A stretch of DNA of 64,000 nt from Dehalococcoidia bacterium (GCA_965116355.1 OZ220679.1:94669-158668); one strand, 5' to 3'; positions 807 to 8,603 are shown, numbered from the stretch's first letter. The notes: generated by a model from the letters alone, not told the origin. Program-made: numbers and translations.

Positions 807-916
807 GGTGTCCTCCTCAGGGGAGAGTATACCCGATGGGCGAGCGGGGGAGGTGGCCCATTCAAGCCTCGGCCCCTGTTTCCGGTGAAAGCCGGGAGCC
901 AGAGGCGCGGGCGTGG

Positions 917-966
917 CCCCCTTCGAGAACCTCAGGACAGGCTTCGACGGGCTCAGGGCGAACGGT
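917..966 (+). repeat. Mosaic repeat, double module C (CTTCGAGAACCTCAGGACAGG + CTTCGACGGGCTCAGGGCGAACGG)
   Basis: Matches the module-C consensus seen at more than 20 other sites in the window. Intergenic between herA and the SDR gene. Confidence 0.8.
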
Positions 967-1210
967 CGGGGGAGGGGGTGAGCGGGGGGATTCGATTGTG
1001 GATAACGAATCGTAGCTGTAGCGGGGGGTTTCAGCTACGAATTTTGCAAAATTTTTTAAAACGAATCGTAGCTGTCACGGTGTGCCACGGGCATCGCTTG
1101 GGGGCGGGTCCAGCCGCATGCCGGGTAATGGCACGAGGATAGCGTGGGGAAGGAGGGGGCGCAACGGGGCGGTGTCAGGGGAATTGTGGTTTGATTTGGT
1201 TGCGGGCGGG

Positions 1211-1248
1211 GCCGGCCCTGGGGCCGGCGGGCGACTCGCGAGTCGCCC
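1211..1248 (-). terminator. Two adjacent GC-rich hairpins just downstream of the herA stop (possible terminator or repeat hairpin)
   Basis: GCCGGCCC-TG-GGGCCGGC (1211-1228) followed by the perfect 20-nt palindrome GGGCGACTCGCGAGTCGCCC (1229-1248). They lie 27-64 nt after the herA stop. No U-tract, so terminator function is uncertain. Confidence 0.3.
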
Positions 1249-1274
1249 CTACGCAGGGAGTGCGGATGGGGGTG

Positions 1275-3041
1275 TTACCCGAACAGCGGGTCGTCGTCCT
1301 CATCGTCCGTGGCGGGAGGGTTCGTGCTTCGATTTGCCTCAGCACGAACGGGGGCGGGGCGGCGCGAGTTGGGGCGCATGAGGGCGTGGTAGCTGGACTC
1401 CGTGCCGTAGTCGCGGACCTGGACGGCGACGGGGATGGGGACGGCCTCGCCGAAGAAGAGCGCCTGCTGGCGGGAGCGGAGACCGGCGAGCACGGAGCGG
1501 AGCTCGCGGCTGCCGGACGCGCCCGCCATGACCGCGTCGACGTCGCGCTCGTCGTCGAGGAGGCAGCAGACCTTGGTGCCGACCTGGCTGAGCACCTCCG
1601 GGTCGATGGCGCTGGGGCGCTGGTCGACGACGAGGAGCGTGACGTTGTTCTTGCGCATCTCGCGGGCGATGACGCCGAAGGGCGACTGCGAGGCGACGGC
1701 CGGGCTGAGGAAGCGGTGGGCCTCCTCAATGACGATGGTGAGCGGCGTGGTGGCGCGACCCTCCTCCGCGGCGGTCTGGCGCTCCCGGTAGCGGTCGTGG
1801 ATGCGGCGGGTGAGCAGGTTGGCGACGAGCATGTAGGCGAGCACGTCATCGCCGTGGCGGCCGAACTCCAGCACGACGTGCATGCCCCGGTCAAGGTGGT
1901 CCATGATGGCGGCGACGGCGTCGGCGCCCGGCGCATCCGACACGAACGGCAGCCGGGCGACGCGGTTCGTCAGGCGGCGGTGCAGGGTAGCGAGGGCCGC
2001 GCCGTTCACGTTGATGCTCGCGGCGAGCTCGCCGATCTCGTCCGAGCCCTCCAGCCGCAGGAACTCGCGCAGCCAGCGATCGTCGCCGAAGCGGCGGCCG
2101 AGGGCGAAGGCGGCCTCCGCGGCGGCGTCCGAGATGCCGAGGGTCTCGCGGAGGGACATGACGTCGTCGGGGGTGATCTCGCCGTAGCCGATCTCGACGA
2201 GGAAGTCGGGCTGCACCTTCGCGCCGCGGGCCCGCTGCTCGTCGAGGGCGAAGACGGAGACCTCTGAGGGGAAGAGCTGCTTCAGGGACTTCACCCGCCG
2301 TCCGCGCTCCACGTCGCCGCCCTCCCAGCCGTACTCGTTGTGCATGTCAAAGATGAGGAGCGACGACAGGCGGCTCTGGAGCACGCCGATGAGGAGCAGG
2401 CGTGTCAGGAAGCTCTTGCCGGTGCCGCTCTTGCCGAAGACGCCGTTGGAGCGCTGGAGCAGCGTGCGCAGGTCCAGGCAGACGACGGCCTCCATGTCCA
2501 GCGGGGTGCCGACGGCGAAGTTGTCGCCGCCCTCCTCGCCGAAGACCTGTGCGACATCGTACGGCGACGCGCGGGCGGCGCGCGAGAAATGCGCGGGCAC
2601 GGTGCGGGCGGGCGCGATGTCGCCCTCCGCCCCGGCGACGCTCGGGAGCGTGAGGCGCGGGCGGACGACGATGCTGCCGTAGGCGGCGGTGCCCGTCAGC
2701 GCGCGCGACACGAAGGGGTCGTCGAAGGAGGCGGGGGCGCTGCGCAGGCGGGAGTCGGTGCTGGCGAGGCGGACCTCGCTGACCATGCCGAAAAAGCGTC
2801 GCGTCTCGCCCTGGATAACGACATAACTGCCTACTGGGATGTCCTCGACAGACGCGCCCTCGGCGAGGCGCACCTCCACGCCGTCGGTCAGGGAGCCACC
2901 GACTACCGTGCCGAGAAGGGTCTGGACAGCGGAGACGGCAGCTTCCGGCGCGCCCTGGGCTCCGGCTTTCGCCGGAGAAACGGGGGGTTGGGAGCCCTCG
3001 ACGGGCTCTGGGTGAGCGGGGGAGTTGCCGTCCAGCGTCAT
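1275..3041 (-). CDS. herA: HerA-like hexameric ATPase/translocase (DUF87/HerA family)
   Basis: 588-aa ORF. Walker A is GVFGKSGTGKS and Walker B is LTIVIEEAHRF. It also has VVDQRPSAID and an N-terminal HAS-barrel-like segment (GTVVGGSLTDGVEVRL..VGSYVVIQG). ATGA start/stop overlap with the upstream gene at 3038-3041. Confidence 0.85.
   Translation of the reverse strand: MTLDGNSPAHPEPVEGSQPPVSPAKAGAQGAPEAAVSAVQTLLGTVVGGSLTDGVEVRLAEGASVEDIPVGSYVVIQGETRRFFGMVSEVRLASTDSRLRSAPASFDDPFVSRALTGTAAYGSIVVRPRLTLPSVAGAEGDIAPARTVPAHFSRAARASPYDVAQVFGEEGGDNFAVGTPLDMEAVVCLDLRTLLQRSNGVFGKSGTGKSFLTRLLLIGVLQSRLSSLLIFDMHNEYGWEGGDVERGRRVKSLKQLFPSEVSVFALDEQRARGAKVQPDFLVEIGYGEITPDDVMSLRETLGISDAAAEAAFALGRRFGDDRWLREFLRLEGSDEIGELAASINVNGAALATLHRRLTNRVARLPFVSDAPGADAVAAIMDHLDRGMHVVLEFGRHGDDVLAYMLVANLLTRRIHDRYRERQTAAEEGRATTPLTIVIEEAHRFLSPAVASQSPFGVIAREMRKNNVTLLVVDQRPSAIDPEVLSQVGTKVCCLLDDERDVDAVMAGASGSRELRSVLAGLRSRQQALFFGEAVPIPVAVQVRDYGTESSYHALMRPNSRRPAPVRAEANRSTNPPATDDEDDDPLFG
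2953..3022 (+). repeat. Mosaic repeat modules B'+C' embedded in the first ~30 codons of herA
   Basis: CCCTGGGCTCCGGCTTTCGCCGGAGAAACGGGGGG (stem CTCCGGC/GCCGGAG) is followed by CCCTCGACGGGCTCTGGGTGAGCGGGGG. Both resemble intergenic modules B and C. Read on the minus strand they give SPAHPEPVEGSQPPVSPAKAGAQG. Confidence 0.6.
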
Positions 3042-3643
3042 CGGATGCCCCGCAGGATGGCGTTAAGGCGCGGGACGTCGCCGGAGAGCTCCTCGGCGAG
3101 GGCGCGGGCGGCGCGTTCGCGGAAAGCGTCAGCGTCCGGGCGGGCTTCGCATGCGAGACGGACGCTCGCGGCGATGACCTCGTCGATGGCGGGGACGTTG
3201 GCGGTGGTCAGCAGGTGCAGGAAGCCGAGGTCCTCGGTGAAGGCCCGTACCTCGGCGTCGTCGCAGCAGCGGACGAAGGCGTGGATGCGCGGGGGCGCGG
3301 CGGGAAGCCGGTGCACGACGGCGCCCGCGCGCTCGTGGCCGCGGCCATGGCCGACGACGAGGGCCTGCAGGTGCGTTGCGAGGAGCCGCGCGATCTGCGG
3401 GTTGTTGCGGTACACAGACGCCTCGTCGGGCTCGTCAGCGCCGCGGGCCGAGACGCGGCGGCCGGGGTCGAGGGCGGCGGTCGTGACGCTGTAGACGACG
3501 CCGTACACGGCCGGGTCGCCGACGCGCACCAGCGCACCGAGGGGCGGCGCGCCGTAGAGCGCGTAGCACTCAGCGGTGAAGCCGGTTGAGCTGGCCTCCA
3601 CCACCTCGCCGATGCGGGCGTCGGGTTGCGGGGTTGTGGTCAC
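3038..3643 (-). CDS. Stand-alone HAS-barrel-like protein with no ATPase domain, encoded between nurA and herA
   Basis: 201-aa ORF. The N-terminus ARIGEVVEASSTGFTAECYAL..PPLGALVRVGD..VYGVVYSV resembles the HerA N-terminal HAS barrel. No Walker motifs. Its stop overlaps the herA start (ATGA). Confidence 0.55.
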   Translation of the reverse strand: MTTTPQPDARIGEVVEASSTGFTAECYALYGAPPLGALVRVGDPAVYGVVYSVTTAALDPGRRVSARGADEPDEASVYRNNPQIARLLATHLQALVVGHGRGHERAGAVVHRLPAAPPRIHAFVRCCDDAEVRAFTEDLGFLHLLTTANVPAIDEVIAASVRLACEARPDADAFRERAARALAEELSGDVPRLNAILRGIR

Positions 3644-3699
3644 GGGCGAGTCCTTTCAGGGAGTTGGGGCGACCCTCCTTCAAGGGCTGGCGCAGGTCT

Positions 3700-3754
3700 G
3701 TCGGGGTTCCCCTGCCTACGCAGGGGCAGGCTCTGCCTTCGCAGGAACCCCGAC
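3700..3754. repeat. Two-armed palindromic hairpin-A derivative in the nurA/HAS-barrel intergenic region
   Basis: The outer stem pairs GTCGGGGTTCC (3700-3710) with GGAACCCCGAC (3744-3754). Inside are inner hairpins CCCCTGC-CTAC-GCAGGGG and GGCAG-GCT-CTGCC. Confidence 0.8.
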
Positions 3755-3761
3755 ACGACGG

Positions 3762-5039
3762 CTACACCCAGGGGCGGCGCTTCGAGCGTTGCTTCTGGGA
3801 AGTGTACACGGGCAGCCCACGGCCCTCCAAGGCGCGTTCCACCATGTTTCTGAAGGCTTCACGGTCCGCGCCGGTGACGACGGCCTGCTCGTGCGCCTCC
3901 TGGAGCGCGACGGGGTAGCCCGCGCCGCGCCGCGCGTTGTCGACGACGAGGGCGTGCGTGAGCGCCAGCAGCGCCGGGTCGAGGGCGACCCATGCGGGTA
4001 TCTCCACGCGGCCGATCTCCTCGTCGACGTTGACGTAGAAGAAGTGGACGCGGTGCGGGCCGTAGGCGTCGCGGGCGACGGGCGAGCGGCTGGCGAACAC
4101 GGCTGAGCGCTGGCCGGACGCGAGGGTGCGCTCGAAGAGCTCGCGGTCGGTCAGGCCGTGGGCGGCGTCGCAGCGGCGCAGGCCGGGAACGAGGGCGCGG
4201 CAGTGTGCCTGGCAGTGGCCGATGGGATCGAGGTCGCAGAGGGCAAGGCGCAGCAGGTTCACGACCTCCGCGCTGTTGGGCAGGCTGATGTAGGACGCGA
4301 CGGCCACACCCGTTTCCCCTTCGATTTCCCTCAGGGCGAACGGGGGTGGTGTCCTCTCCCCCTGTCCATAGGACGCGTCCCGGATGCGGTCGAGGGCGGC
4401 GAGAAGGCCGTCGTTGAGGAGGCGCTCGCGGACGTAGTCGGGGTAGCGGCCGCGCGGGGGCAGCTCGCCGCCGAGCTCCCACAGGACGAGCGTGCCGTCA
4501 AGGAGGGCGAGGGTGGGGAGGCCGCTGGCGCCGGCGTCCACGGCGTCGGCGAGGGCCGTCGCCTCCTCGACCGTGCGCACGAGGCCCATTAGGGCGCCCT
4601 CGACGGCTTGCCGGGCCGAGGGGGTGTCCGGGTCTTGCAGGAAGAGTTCGGCGTCGGCGGTGCGGAGGCCCGGGTGGCTGAACAGCTCGGCGTCGGGGGC
4701 GTCGCCGTAGGTGAGGCGGCAACCACCGATGTTGATGAGCGCGCACCGCAGAGGCAGGTGGCGGTTGACGTCGATGTGGGAGCCGTCGGTGGCGACGACG
4801 CTGAAGTCGGCAGGCGGCGCGGGCGTGTCGAAGACCGCGCCGGGCGGTTCGACAGCCTCAGCGGGGAGGAAGGCGAGCAGCCCCTGCGCCGCCTCTACGC
4901 GGTCGTTCAGCGTGGCGGCGTCGGCATCGTGCAGGGCGGCGAGGACCGCGCCCGTGCGGCGGTCGCGCGCGGGGCCGAAGTCGGCGGTCGCGATGGCGGC
5001 GTCGATCTGGGCGGCGGTTCGGTAGAGGTCAAGGGCCAT
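3762..5039 (-). CDS. nurA: NurA-domain nuclease
   Basis: 425-aa ORF with NurA-type motifs VVATDGSHIDVNRH, LLDGTLVLW and GYPVALQEAHEQAVV. It sits upstream of and co-directional with herA. Confidence 0.8.
   Translation of the reverse strand: MALDLYRTAAQIDAAIATADFGPARDRRTGAVLAALHDADAATLNDRVEAAQGLLAFLPAEAVEPPGAVFDTPAPPADFSVVATDGSHIDVNRHLPLRCALINIGGCRLTYGDAPDAELFSHPGLRTADAELFLQDPDTPSARQAVEGALMGLVRTVEEATALADAVDAGASGLPTLALLDGTLVLWELGGELPPRGRYPDYVRERLLNDGLLAALDRIRDASYGQGERTPPPFALREIEGETGVAVASYISLPNSAEVVNLLRLALCDLDPIGHCQAHCRALVPGLRRCDAAHGLTDRELFERTLASGQRSAVFASRSPVARDAYGPHRVHFFYVNVDEEIGRVEIPAWVALDPALLALTHALVVDNARRGAGYPVALQEAHEQAVVTGADREAFRNMVERALEGRGLPVYTSQKQRSKRRPWV
4317..4347 (+). repeat. Module C copy inserted in frame inside nurA
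   Basis: CCCCTTCGATTTCCCTCAGGGCGAACGGGGG. On the minus strand it is read as TPPPFALREIEGETG without breaking the ORF. Confidence 0.8.
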
Positions 5040-5059
5040 GGATGCGCCTCCTGATTTCT

Positions 5060-5089
5060 CGTCGTTCCTGCGAAGGCAGGAACCCCGAC
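5060..5089 (-). repeat. Hairpin module A, the only reverse-oriented copy I found; 4 nt downstream of the GIY-YIG stop
   Basis: CGTCGTTCCTGCGAAGGCAGGAACCCCGAC is the reverse complement of the GTCGGGGTTCCTGCC..GCAGGAACGACG consensus. Confidence 0.85.
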
Positions 5090-5093
5090 GCTG

Positions 5094-5402
5094 TTACATC
5101 AATTCTTCATGCAAGTCACGCCAAGAGGGGTTACTCTCCGCAATCAAGCGCAGTTTCCAAGCCCGCTTCCAACGCTTCAAGGCCTTTTCCCGTGAGATTG
5201 CACTCTCCATTGATTCGTGGACTTCGTACCAAACCAAGCTCTTGATGTTGTAGATGTTGGTGTGACCTTCAACAAAGCCCTCTTTGTGCTGCCAAACTCG
5301 TTGGACAAGGTCTGAGGTTACGCCAATGTATATGGCGCCGCCCGGCCTGCTGGCCATGATGTACACACAGGGAATGCGGGGGCGAAAGGAACTCTGTTGC
5401 AT
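5094..5402 (-). CDS. Small GIY-YIG nuclease superfamily protein (UPF0213/COG2827-like)
   Basis: 102-aa ORF containing GAIYIGVTSDLVQRVWQHK...ESAISREKALKRWKRAWKLRLI (GIY..YIG plus the conserved R/E/K helix). G+C is visibly lower than the flanks. Confidence 0.85.
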   Translation of the reverse strand: MQQSSFRPRIPCVYIMASRPGGAIYIGVTSDLVQRVWQHKEGFVEGHTNIYNIKSLVWYEVHESMESAISREKALKRWKRAWKLRLIAESNPSWRDLHEELM

Positions 5403-5428
5403 GGCGTGACTCTACCATGGTGGGGTTT

Positions 5429-5461
5429 GTCGGGGCCCCTGCCTGCGCAGGGGCGACGGGG
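5429..5461 (+). repeat. Hairpin module A variant 27 nt upstream of the GIY-YIG start
   Basis: GTCGGGGCCCCTGCCTGCGCAGGGGCGACGGGG (stem CCCCTGC/GCAGGGG). Confidence 0.8.
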
Positions 5462-5493
5462 ATGGTGCACCTTTTGATGGAAGTTTAGCGGTC

Positions 5494-5528
5494 TGTTGGG
5501 GTTCCTGCCTACGCAGGAACGACGGGGG
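5494..5528 (+). repeat. Hairpin module A overlapping the 3' end of the DUF433 gene
   Basis: GTTGGGGTTCCTGCCTACGCAGGAACGACGGGGGG. It supplies the last codons (..APVPPVVPA*) of the minus-strand ORF. Confidence 0.8.
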
Positions 5529-5745
5529 GCACAGGAGCCTTCAGAGAGTCCGCTACGTACTGCAGTACGGCTCTGACCTTCCACTCTTCGGCGTCGAACC
5601 ATTCTAGATAGTCCTCCACCGTGGCGCCGCTCTCCAAGTTCTCGAAGAGACTTGACACCGGCAACCGGGAGCCCTTGAACACCCAGGCCCCGCTCACCCT
5701 GCCGGGCACACTCTCAACCGCCGGACACTTACTCCAGTCCGTCAT
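5509..5745 (-). CDS. DUF433-domain protein (antitoxin-like HTH family)
   Basis: VESVPGRVSGAWVFKGSRLPVSSLFENLESGATVEDYLEWF matches the DUF433 pattern (G.P.ikGTRipV..i...l..G.s.eei). I prefer the internal ATG at 5743-5745 (MTDWSKC). The track ORF extends to 5787. Confidence 0.65.
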   Translation of the reverse strand: MTDWSKCPAVESVPGRVSGAWVFKGSRLPVSSLFENLESGATVEDYLEWFDAEEWKVRAVLQYVADSLKAPVPPVVPA

Positions 5746-5873
5746 GCCCTCACCCCGTTTTCCGCTGCGAGCCCTTTCTCCATGCACAGCTCATACCGAA
5801 CGGTCCATTACCCTCATTGTCCAGCACCGCTACGTTCTCGTCTATCGGCGCATCCTCGCCCGCATCCCCTGTT

Positions 5874-5904
5874 CTCCTTTTGATTTCCCTCAAGGCGAAC
5901 GGGG
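5874..5904 (+). repeat. Module C copy abutting the stop codon of the DUF429-like gene
   Basis: CTCCTTTTGATTTCCCTCAAGGCGAACGGGG ends 1 nt before the stop at 5905-5907. Confidence 0.75.
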
Positions 5905-6722
5905 CTAGACGAAGATGTATGCCTCAAGATAGTAGGGGAACCGGTGGGCTTGCACTATGCGCTCAGGGTCGGCAATTGCGCGGAAAGTCGCGTCCGCGGC
6001 GATGACACTGTCCAGCGCATCGCCCTGCGCGTCCGCGATTACCCGCTGCCGGACATCGCCGTCGCTGAACGTGACACGGCCCGAGTCCTTCAGCGCGAGC
6101 AGGATGTTCTCCCGTGCCTCGACGCTCCCGCGAGCGTCCTTGTAGGCCCCGTAGAGGCCGGATGCCTTCAGCGTGCTGGCGGGGCACACCTCCATGATCC
6201 ACGGCGCGTCGTCATCGGAGTAGTGGAGCGGCGGGACGTTGACGAGGTTACCGGCAACGAGCGGACGGAGCAGCTCAGTGATGCCGTAGTACGTCTGCCG
6301 GAAGATGCGGAGGTTGTAGGCGGAGAACGGCGCCTTGGCTTCGACATCCGTCCGCCGCCGCAGCTCCTTGCGGCCGGCGAGGTCAACTGCCGTTGCGAGG
6401 CAGCGTTCTCGAAACTCGCTCTCCGTGGCGAAGCGGCCTGGAAATTCGGCCACGAACTCGGCCCAGGACTCGGCGCCGATCAGCTCGCGAGGCAGGCTGA
6501 ACGGAAAGTCGCACCCGAACGCCGCGCTCTCCGAGCCGCCAATGAACGCCCGCAGCGCGGCCAGCGCCTCATCGCGAGCGGGGGAGCACCCGAGGAACTC
6601 GGGCGCGGGCGCGCACGCCTCCACCACGATTCCACGGCGGTAGGGCACGGCCTGCGCGATCCAGATCTTGTTGCCCGCCTGCTTTGCGCCGCTGAAGTCG
6701 ACGCCATAGACGCGGTCCTGCA

Positions 6723-6723
<1 letters not shown>
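5905..6723 (-). CDS. DUF429-like predicted RNase-H-fold nuclease
   Basis: About 272 aa. N-terminal VYGVDFSGAKQAG and C-terminal GDALDSVIAADATF fit my recollection of DUF429. The ATG at 6721-6723 overlaps the selB stop (TGATG). An alternative GTG lies at 6726. Confidence 0.5.

Positions 6724-8603
<1,880 letters not shown>

Follow-up and report, generated by a model that had tools for sequence, protein, structure and literature searches.

NurA-HerA is the model helicase-nuclease for DNA-end resection in archaea, and several anti-phage systems have lately turned out to be built around HerA rings; in each of these machines the HAS-barrel face is the platform on which partners dock. To our knowledge, the partner enzyme docks on this face in every solved HerA complex. 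A ring collar made by the same barrel superfamily is the N-terminal beta-barrel crown of the F1-ATPase alpha and beta subunits (the 'AS' in HAS barrel), which holds a hexameric P-loop motor together; there the barrel is invariably part of the ATPase subunit itself, whereas the locus analysed here appears to encode a free copy beside the fused one.

The NurA-HerA pair of Deinococcus radiodurans and the nurA-hepA pair of Thermus are, like the present locus, bacterial and chromosomal, with nurA upstream of herA in a neighbourhood devoted to functions other than DNA metabolism (PMC9960219, PMC5448004). The shared plan consists of a HerA with a HAS barrel, a RecA-like ATPase and a helix bundle, and of a NurA that docks on the HAS-barrel face (PMC9960219) and has been credited, as an 'assembly organizer', with selecting the HerA hexamer (PMC5715905). 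Both are two-gene systems, and the stop codon of Thermus nurA directly overlaps the start of hepA (PMC5448004), whereas here a predicted barrel protein of 201 aa is inserted between the two genes and coupled to herA. The archaeal HerA-NurA(-Mre11-Rad50) machinery of Sulfolobus and Thermococcus follows the same logic of a hexameric motor and a dimeric RNase H-like nuclease; compared with it, the present locus is bacterial, has the extra free barrel and a Cys cluster in NurA, and shows no Mre11/Rad50 (SbcCD) cluster among its conserved neighbours in 46 loci. In anti-phage HerA complexes (Sir2-HerA/Nezha, HerA-DUF4297 and TdpAB), too, a partner protein is recruited to the HAS face of a HerA hexamer; these partners are patchily distributed effector enzymes (Sir2, DUF4297 and TdpB), whereas here the additional protein is a putative barrel paralogue in a syntenic locus.

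As the earlier note on this DNA had supposed, the searchable literature holds no three-component nurA/barrel/herA version, and the protein, named Mid in this study for its position between NurA and HerA, suggests that a DNA-end-processing machine described to date as a complex of two proteins has a third, undescribed subunit. A docking platform that exists throughout a phylum as a free copy and is translated together with the motor would serve as a natural experiment bearing on HerA ring assembly, on the adaptation of a six-fold ring to a two-fold partner and on the gating of activity. It would also provide a function hypothesis and a partner for a large family that lacks annotation and numbers over 1000 clusters at 50% identity, whose hosts, Dehalococcoidia and SAR202, are abundant, poorly characterised environmental bacteria.

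Organization of the locus

The three-ORF arrangement and ATGA coupling described in the earlier note are confirmed by coordinates and junction sequence: nurA, mid and herA lie in this order as co-directional minus-strand ORFs of the window, the 64,000-nt stretch of DNA analysed here (Table 1). At the mid/herA junction (...ATC CGA TGA CGC...) the Mid TGA overlaps the HerA ATG, an arrangement that couples mid translationally to herA. An AAAGGA Shine-Dalgarno-like motif is located approximately 7 nt 5' of the Mid start codon. The spacer between nurA and mid, whose length in related loci lies between -4 and ~200 nt, contains a 7-bp hairpin (CCCCTGC-GTAG-GCAGGGG), and no terminator-like site was found in positions 900-6000.

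Table 1. Positions of the genes, predicted domains and motifs of the nurA-mid-herA locus in the window.
Feature	Position (nt)	Strand	Description
nurA	3762-5039	-	425 aa, NurA-family nuclease
nurA-mid spacer	3644-3761	-	118 nt, read from sequence
mid	3038-3643	-	201 aa, GTG start, family without annotation
Mid, predicted HAS-barrel domain (residues ~9-100)	3344-3619	-	Predicted secondary structure and weak Pfam matches in relatives
Mid, predicted linker and helical domain (residues ~105-201)	3041-3331	-	Model; no family assignment
ATGA overlap, Mid stop/HerA start	3038-3041	-	Read from sequence
herA	1275-3041	-	588 aa, HerA-type ATPase with its own HAS barrel
HerA Walker A, GKSGTGKS (aa 203-210)	2412-2435	-	Invariant across 28 orthologues
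HerA Walker B, IVIEE (aa ~434-440)	~1722-1742	-	Ends E439/E440; invariant across 28 orthologues

NurA and HerA

The identification of NurA holds, with the Pfam NurA model (PF09376) matching above its cutoff over the whole domain (E = 4.3e-21, 76 bits versus a cutoff of 21, profile 2-254 of 254), and homologues of the window protein carry the same annotation. Family alignments reveal invariant D85-G86-S87, E159 and D181-G182, helices extend the protein at its N-terminus (aa 5-50), and four Cys residues (C268, C276, C280 and C290) form a conserved cluster. Its AF2 model (pLDDT 83.9) matches PIWI domains, RNase HI and TM1739 (given as a 'putative nuclease with RNase H-like fold') with low TM-scores of 0.24-0.34. 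Archaeal and Deinococcus NurA structures are not among its best 50 fold matches, and by sequence it matches nothing in the PDB, solved NurA proteins included. The protein represents a divergent NurA lineage, with a modelled RNase H-like/PIWI-like fold and conserved acidic catalytic residues (D85, E159 and D181).

Pfam also bears out HerA, both for the ATPase (DUF87, 1.2e-21, 78.3 bits versus a cutoff of 23.2) and for the HAS barrel (2e-9, 37.8 bits versus a cutoff of 25.2, aa 44-100); since the latter match is above its cutoff, HerA keeps a barrel of its own, as had been claimed. Invariant residues are G203, K204, G206, G208, K209, E439, E440 and D473-Q474-R475, and the catalytic motifs of both NurA and HerA are intact. 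The window HerA finds only distant matches among solved HerAs (best 63 bits), with the archaeal proteins of Sulfolobus (4D2I) and Thermococcus (9X1M) among the best and no match to D. radiodurans HerA at E<=1e-3. NCBIfam equivalog models for characterised HerAs, whether of archaeal repair or anti-phage type, score far below their cutoffs (NF042943, 84.6 bits versus 800; NF040937, 66.6 versus 800), and judging from its sequence the protein is a HerA-family member and not an equivalog of any curated type.

Predicted fold and family of Mid

The claim that Mid resembles the HAS barrel is upheld by its predicted fold and by its relatives, but the window copy itself lacks a significant sequence match. 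It matches nothing in Pfam (E<=1), PADLOC or NCBIfam; BLASTP finds no significant similarity to the neighbouring HerA, a collinear alignment to HerA 36-197 is not significant either, and profile-profile comparison gives a probability of 0.9%. Among 43 relatives, 13 match the Pfam HAS-barrel (PF09378) weakly (best 8.6e-6), and one family member (P0085) narrowly exceeds the threshold (26.2 bits versus a cutoff of 25.2) over the near-full profile (residues 13-105, profile 1-89 of 90). The AlphaFold (AF2) model of Mid is confident (pLDDT 92.8), and the best 50 Foldseek matches in the PDB are all HerA chains (probability 1.00, best E = 2.3e-6), which runs counter to the possibility that the protein has neither a HAS-barrel match nor such a fold. 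The best structural matches are the N-terminal regions of HerA from Sulfolobus (4D2I) and Thermococcus (9X1M; E = 2e-6), and the Sir2-HerA, HerA-DUF4297 and TdpAB complexes are also found among them. Because of the predicted fold and the weak matches in relatives, the barrel is assigned to Mid, which is best modelled as a stand-alone HAS-barrel-fold protein without ATPase motifs; Walker A is absent from the window copy and from all 43 family members examined.

The earlier note had described Mid as a HAS-barrel cap only. The barrel (residues ~9-100) and the lack of Walker motifs agree with this description, but about half of Mid (~105-201) is modelled as a separate helical domain. In the AF2 model, barrel strands at 10-17, 21-26, 38-41, 46-57 and 88-100, with a conserved basic loop (DPGRRVxARG) at 59-68, are followed by a conserved linker motif (LPxxPPRIHAFV, 113-124) and by helices at 129-135, 141-147, 153-166, 171-185 and 190-200. 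The C-terminal half has no Pfam match in the window copy or its relatives. A word-indexed search found 221 Mid homologues and an exhaustive HMMER search 1067 clusters at 50% identity, with a uniform length of ~200 aa and with 12 invariant and 24 near-invariant positions. Every taxon-named member is from Chloroflexota, and no copies were found in phage or plasmid collections.

Conservation of gene order and neighbourhood

Gene order was surveyed in 46 species, with NurA counted if it lay within 6 kb. The herA gene lies directly 3' of mid in 44 of these, the exceptions being one locus cut by a contig end and one other (L045), and a 4-bp stop/start overlap joins mid and herA in 27 of the 40 loci in which both ORFs could be delimited. 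NurA was found upstream in 28 of the 46 species and not within 6 kb in the remaining 18. Because herA follows mid so consistently and NurA is nearby less often, Mid-HerA is the tightest pair and the conserved core, and the full trio is widespread; three divergent Chloroflexota lineages (L047, L049 and L050) have nurA-mid-herA with overlaps at both junctions, those between mid and herA being 4-8 bp. Far from being a variable insertion, mid is the most constant partner of herA.

The locus is chromosomal and vertically inherited, in a housekeeping context. The genes conserved around it are selB, a DUF429-like gene, panC and those for electron-transfer flavoproteins; the order relative to selB holds across 27 loci, and the identities of Mid, HerA and NurA track that of SelB (r = 0.96-0.97), with NurA identity also co-varying with that of Mid (r = 0.97). 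Of the flanking genes named previously, GIY-YIG and DUF433 are real Pfam matches, and the 273-aa neighbour is DUF429-like only through its family, in which 4 of 7 orthologues match (best 4e-7). A candidate Pfam assignment of this neighbour as Mre11_C was rejected as sub-threshold noise (15 bits versus 27). The GIY-YIG and DUF433 genes lie within a low-GC insertion of ~850 nt found only in this window. PADLOC has no match for NurA, Mid or the flanking genes and only generic HerA models for HerA, and it identified no cognate effector partner, such as Sir2, DUF4297 or TdpB, of the known HerA anti-phage systems (Sir2-HerA, HerA-DUF4297, TdpAB and MADS). Given this private insertion, the housekeeping neighbours, the lack of phage or plasmid copies and the PADLOC result for NurA and Mid, the 'defence-island flavour' attributed to the locus is not borne out.

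Potential roles of Mid

The best explanation, to which we assign a probability of roughly 0.55, is that Mid serves a Chloroflexota-specific NurA-HerA DNA-processing machine as a dedicated accessory subunit, made in roughly equimolar amounts and with HerA as its main partner; this reading rests on the fold, the linkage to herA, the conservation, the housekeeping context and the intact NurA and HerA motifs. Any physical contact, the stoichiometry and the role in DNA-end resection are inferred, the last by extrapolation, as no characterised pair is close to the window HerA and NurA. The Mid barrel would make the same kind of barrel-barrel ring contacts as the HerA barrels, an analogy since Mid lacks significant similarity to the neighbouring HerA barrel, and Mid would be placed at the HAS face of the hexamer, either on it or alongside, probably forming a second collar or six peripheral copies. 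The C-terminal helical domain would offer a new surface that could reconcile the C2 symmetry of the NurA dimer with the C6 symmetry of the ring or, alternatively, control ring assembly and activation; the adaptor role is not readable from linkage alone because of the 18 species in which NurA is not close by. A more specific and tentative version is a three-component resection motor (HerA6:Mid6:NurA2), in which the free barrel adds another six-fold collar to the HerA ring, moves or gates the nuclease docking site and couples ring assembly to partner loading. We know of no described counterpart of such an architecture among HerA/FtsK-type translocases, all of which carry the barrel as part of the ATPase. 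In the subclade with nurA unlinked, other partners might join the same Mid-HerA core. Against a subunit role, the HerA barrel is complete by Pfam, leaving nothing obvious for Mid to supply, and L045 has Mid without a downstream HerA.

It is also conceivable, although unlikely, that Mid is a negative regulator or decoy that binds the NurA dimer or caps individual HerA protomers and has to be displaced by a DNA end or a damage signal before the machine becomes active. Mid is predicted to share its fold with the HerA surface on which NurA usually docks, and the acidic HAS face of bacterial HerA (PMC9960219) is a possible contact for its basic loop; furthermore, as HerA already has a barrel, a second one is more easily a competitor than a structural necessity. 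However, the tightest linkage and the translational coupling of mid are with herA and not with nurA, and equimolar co-synthesis with the motor suits a structural subunit better than an inhibitor. Somewhat less likely still, Mid-HerA may be an autonomous two-protein DNA translocase that acts independently of NurA in DNA transfer or uptake, segregation or another repair step, with the adjacency of nurA reflecting ancestral synteny. The loci without a nearby NurA, the intact Mid-HerA pair in varied housekeeping contexts and the roles of Thermus HepA beyond NurA-linked repair (PMC5448004; see also PMC5365140) are consistent with this idea, but the divergent lineages that keep all three genes with overlaps at both junctions, and the co-variation of NurA with Mid, argue against it.

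A HerA-centred anti-phage system with NurA as effector nuclease and Mid as sensor or adaptor is very improbable. Anti-phage HerA models of PADLOC/NCBIfam do match the window HerA at low scores (3e-31; 84.6 bits versus a cutoff of 800), the fold matches of Mid include three anti-phage complexes, and a GIY-YIG gene is nearby; however, the latter belongs to the window-specific insertion, NurA and Mid have no PADLOC match, the selB synteny is stable and the identities track SelB, phage or plasmid copies were not found, and restriction of the taxon-named members to Chloroflexota is the reverse of the scattered distribution that defence genes usually show. Finally, the extension of the fold alignments over 130-150 columns, into the HerA N-terminal part beyond the barrel, and the collinear but non-significant alignment to HerA could suggest that Mid derives from a duplicated herA, is in decay and lacks a function of its own, but this is effectively refuted by its uniform length, its invariant and near-invariant residues, its conserved stop/start coupling and the many clusters of its family.

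Gene arrangement in the window

The NurA nuclease and the hexameric ATPase motor HerA are already known as a system; the conserved, putative subunit added to them here, Mid (the 201-aa protein encoded between nurA and herA), is not. Open reading frames, Pfam matches and a direct reading of the junction confirmed the coordinates, the gene order and the mid-herA coupling claimed in the earlier note (Table). Profile searches likewise bore out the identities proposed for NurA and HerA, with Pfam matches above cutoffs for both, and HerA has its own HAS barrel, the N-terminal domain of HerA proteins. At the junction (...CGATGACG...), the mid TGA stop overlaps the herA ATG, and an AAAGGA motif precedes the GTG start of mid, both by direct reading. 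No terminator-like sites were found within positions 900-6000 of the window. The 118-nt spacer between nurA and mid contains a 7-bp GC-rich hairpin (CCCCTGC-GTAG-GCAGGGG) without a trailing T tract. In Thermus, the nurA stop directly overlaps the hepA start, making this a two-gene system (PMC5448004), whereas in the window mid lies between nurA and herA, and it is the mid stop that overlaps the start of the motor gene. Neither a stand-alone HAS-barrel partner nor a three-component NurA-HerA system was found in full-text searches of literature outside subscription journals, in line with the earlier note, which knew of no described three-component version. According to one paper, most HAS-barrel/DUF87 proteins of bacteria have yet to be described (PMC8136920).

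Table. Positions of genes and other features in the window
Feature	Position	Strand	Description
herA	1275-3041	minus	588 aa; Pfam DUF87 (1.2e-21) and own HAS barrel (2e-9), both above gathering cutoffs
mid	3038-3643	minus	201 aa, GTG start; ORF between nurA and herA
Hairpin	~3700-3717	minus	nurA-mid spacer
nurA	3762-5039	minus	425 aa; Pfam NurA (E = 4.3e-21), full-length profile, above gathering cutoff
NurA Cys cluster	4170-4238		residues 268-290
NurA N-terminal extension	4890-5027		residues 5-50
Low-GC segment	5040-5889		between the DUF429-like gene and nurA
GIY-YIG gene	5094-5402	minus	102 aa; within the low-GC segment
DUF433 gene	5509-5787	minus	within the low-GC segment
DUF429-like gene	5905-6726	minus	273 aa; in the nearest clades, conserved with selB on one side and nurA on the other; start overlaps selB stop (6723-6726)

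Sequence and predicted fold of Mid

Even with E ≤ 1 allowed, Mid matched nothing in Pfam, PADLOC or NCBIfam. BLASTP detected no significant similarity between Mid and the adjoining HerA, profile-profile alignment (hhalign) gave a probability of 0.9%, and a permissive trimmed hhalign run placed Mid residues 3-177 collinear with HerA residues 36-197 at a non-significant level (E = 0.06, probability 0.9%). Because there is no significant similarity between the two proteins, a recent duplication is not claimed. Sequence and profile searches of the PDB returned nothing useful; a single match to IF-2 (E = 0.025) was dismissed.

An AlphaFold model of Mid was obtained from a 43-sequence alignment (pLDDT 92.8, pTM 0.87), and the best 50 Foldseek matches of this model in the PDB were all HerA chains (probability 1.00, best E = 2.3e-6, 130-150 columns aligned), including Sulfolobus 4D2I, Thermococcus HerA-NurA 9X1M, HerA-DUF4297, D. 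radiodurans HerA, TdpA and Sir2-HerA. The Pfam HAS-barrel profile matched weakly in 13 of the 43 Mid relatives, and in the homologue P0085 it scored above its cutoff with the whole model spanned (residues 13-105 against profile positions 1-89 of 90). On the basis of the model, the HerA-only Foldseek matches and the HAS-barrel matches in relatives, Mid residues ~9-100 are predicted to be a complete HAS barrel. According to the alignment and the model, residues ~105-201 comprise an invariant-rich linker (LPxxPPRIHAFV) and a helix bundle without family assignment. The HAS-barrel resemblance noticed earlier for the 201-aa protein therefore stands for the predicted fold but not, in the window copy, for the sequence (BLASTP, hhalign, Pfam), while the reported lack of Walker motifs agrees with the absence of Walker A from all 43 family members.

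Conservation of gene order

Related loci from 46 species were collected by scanning one genome per species with a 15-sequence Mid alignment; two peptide patterns were used, and the count of 46 is a lower bound that may lean toward Dehalococcoidia. By tblastn, 44 of the 46 loci have a herA in the orientation of mid that begins less than 500 nt after it; of the exceptions, L043 stops at a contig edge and L045 is truly without herA. Both ORFs could be delimited in 40 loci, and in 27 of these the mid stop and the herA start share the 4-bp overlap. A co-oriented nurA lies upstream of mid in 28 of the 46 loci (within 400 nt in 20, and with 0.5-3 kb of other genes between in eight). In the 18 loci without upstream NurA, the neighbours of Mid-HerA are panC, electron-transfer flavoprotein genes, CoA-transferase-like, proton-pyrophosphatase-like and GNAT-like genes and a Fur-like regulator, and no substitute nuclease adjoins the pair. 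Three divergent Chloroflexota lineages have NurA-Mid-HerA as called genes, overlapping at both junctions. Based on the survey and these lineages, the nurA-mid-herA trio is widespread in Chloroflexota and probably ancestral in the phylum, and Mid-HerA is a unit almost never broken; the middle gene was neither absent nor variable.

Other patterns were seen around these genes. In 27 of the loci, selB, then the DUF429-like gene or an unknown gene of 163 aa, and then nurA form a stable syntenic block, and loci without nurA near mid-herA are without selB as well. This shared absence suggests that, in one Dehalococcoidia subclade, a single rearrangement separated selB-nurA from mid-herA. At L045 (5938-6654), no herA follows mid for 6 kb; the next gene is convergent instead, and NurA lies 1.6 kb upstream. 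A ~250-aa protein starting MQNRYVGDVGDFGKLGLLR… (cluster c17) is encoded between herA and panC in L038 (8474-9232) and four other loci; it had no match in Pfam, and its five loci are without an adjoining NurA.

Features of HerA and NurA

HerA has invariant Walker A (GKSGTGKS, residues 203-210), Walker B (…IVIEE, E439/E440) and DQR motifs. Its score falls far under the NCBIfam equivalog cutoffs, and its matches to solved HerAs are distant only (best 63 bits), D. radiodurans HerA not being retrieved. The apparent integrity of the HerA domains rests on the Pfam matches and these conserved motifs. In family alignments, NurA has invariant DGS, E159 and DG motifs; a sequence search of the PDB gave no match, and TM-scores of the predicted model (pLDDT 83.9) to the PIWI, RNase H and TM1739 folds that it resembles are modest. 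Since matches to solved proteins are distant or absent and the motifs are invariant, the pair is, judging by sequence, a divergent bacterial NurA-HerA lineage with its catalytic motifs intact.

This NurA family also shares a conserved Cys cluster, spaced C268-x7-C276-x3-C280-x9-C290, and has His residues adjacent to it. Three of the Cys residues (C268, C280, C290) never vary, and at least 90% of sequences have C276. The cluster may bind zinc or an iron-sulfur centre; archaeal NurA is not known to have such a site. In addition, a three-helix N-terminal extension is predicted outside the Pfam NurA domain (residues 80-388), and the C-terminal tail is conserved and basic (…YTSxKxRSKRxxWV). Both are candidate partner-binding elements.

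Potential role of Mid

Published work places NurA on the HAS-barrel face of HerA hexamers, in archaea as well as in Deinococcus (PMC9960219), and the form of HerA selected when NurA binds is the hexameric one (PMC5715905). We infer, with a probability of about 0.55, that Mid is a HerA-associated subunit of the NurA-HerA machine. As a free paralogue of the docking domain, translated together with the motor and retained throughout the history of the phylum, Mid would most likely be bound to HerA as an accessory subunit, on or near the HAS face. Its helical domain may give NurA a new docking surface, or one through which assembly is controlled. A specific collar or adaptor geometry can be proposed only tentatively. 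An unlikely alternative is that Mid acts on the NurA-HerA interaction as a decoy or inhibitor. It is quite unlikely that Mid and HerA constitute an autonomous translocase independent of NurA.

Genomic context and inheritance

The defence-island flavour that the earlier note ascribed to the locus came from its GIY-YIG, DUF433 and DUF429-like neighbours. The first two lie in a ~850-nt segment of 56-60% GC, compared to ~70% around it. In alignments to the closest relatives, homology ends at window position 5889 and resumes at 5040 (848 nt versus 42 nt in locus L002), and none of the 46 loci has DUF433 and GIY-YIG genes beside nurA. Given the homology break, the lower GC and this absence, the segment is an insertion private to the window, with the appearance of a small cassette that is mobile or was acquired horizontally. 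The neighbours conserved on the upstream side are housekeeping ones: selB and, in the nearest clades, the 273-aa protein. Four of seven orthologues of the latter matched DUF429 (best 4e-7), a predicted RNase H-like nuclease family, so "DUF429-like" was correct at the family level.

For each of Mid, HerA and NurA, sequence identity to the window protein follows that of SelB (Pearson 0.96-0.97). Mid had no match among 72,556 plasmids and 50,697 phage records, and the single match of HerA was to an archaeal plasmid at 26% identity; neither protein gave anything relevant. PADLOC returned generic HerA models only. These results are evidence for a housekeeping, vertically inherited nurA-mid-herA locus and, together with the private insertion, make a defence system very improbable.

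The Mid family

A word-indexed search retrieved 221 Mid homologues, nearly all of ~200 aa, and HMMER, run exhaustively against 1.84 billion representatives, retrieved 1067 Mid clusters (50% identity) at E ≤ 1e-3 and 266 at E ≤ 1e-30. The best 150 of the 1067 clusters are all stand-alone proteins, none fused to an ATPase. The Mid alignment has 12 invariant and 24 near-invariant positions; E13, R62, R63, R67, P117, P118, H121, F123 and R192 are among the conserved residues. The mid gene is a real, selected gene, and the chance that its product is a decaying duplicate is negligible. Longer members, considered as possible natural (Rosetta-stone) fusions, proved to carry N-terminal extensions or inserts or, in homologue P0325, to be a frameshifted join of NurA and Mid; no genuine fusion was among them. 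All taxon-named members are from Chloroflexota, Dehalococcoidia or SAR202, including the divergent branch reached from the homologue P0386.
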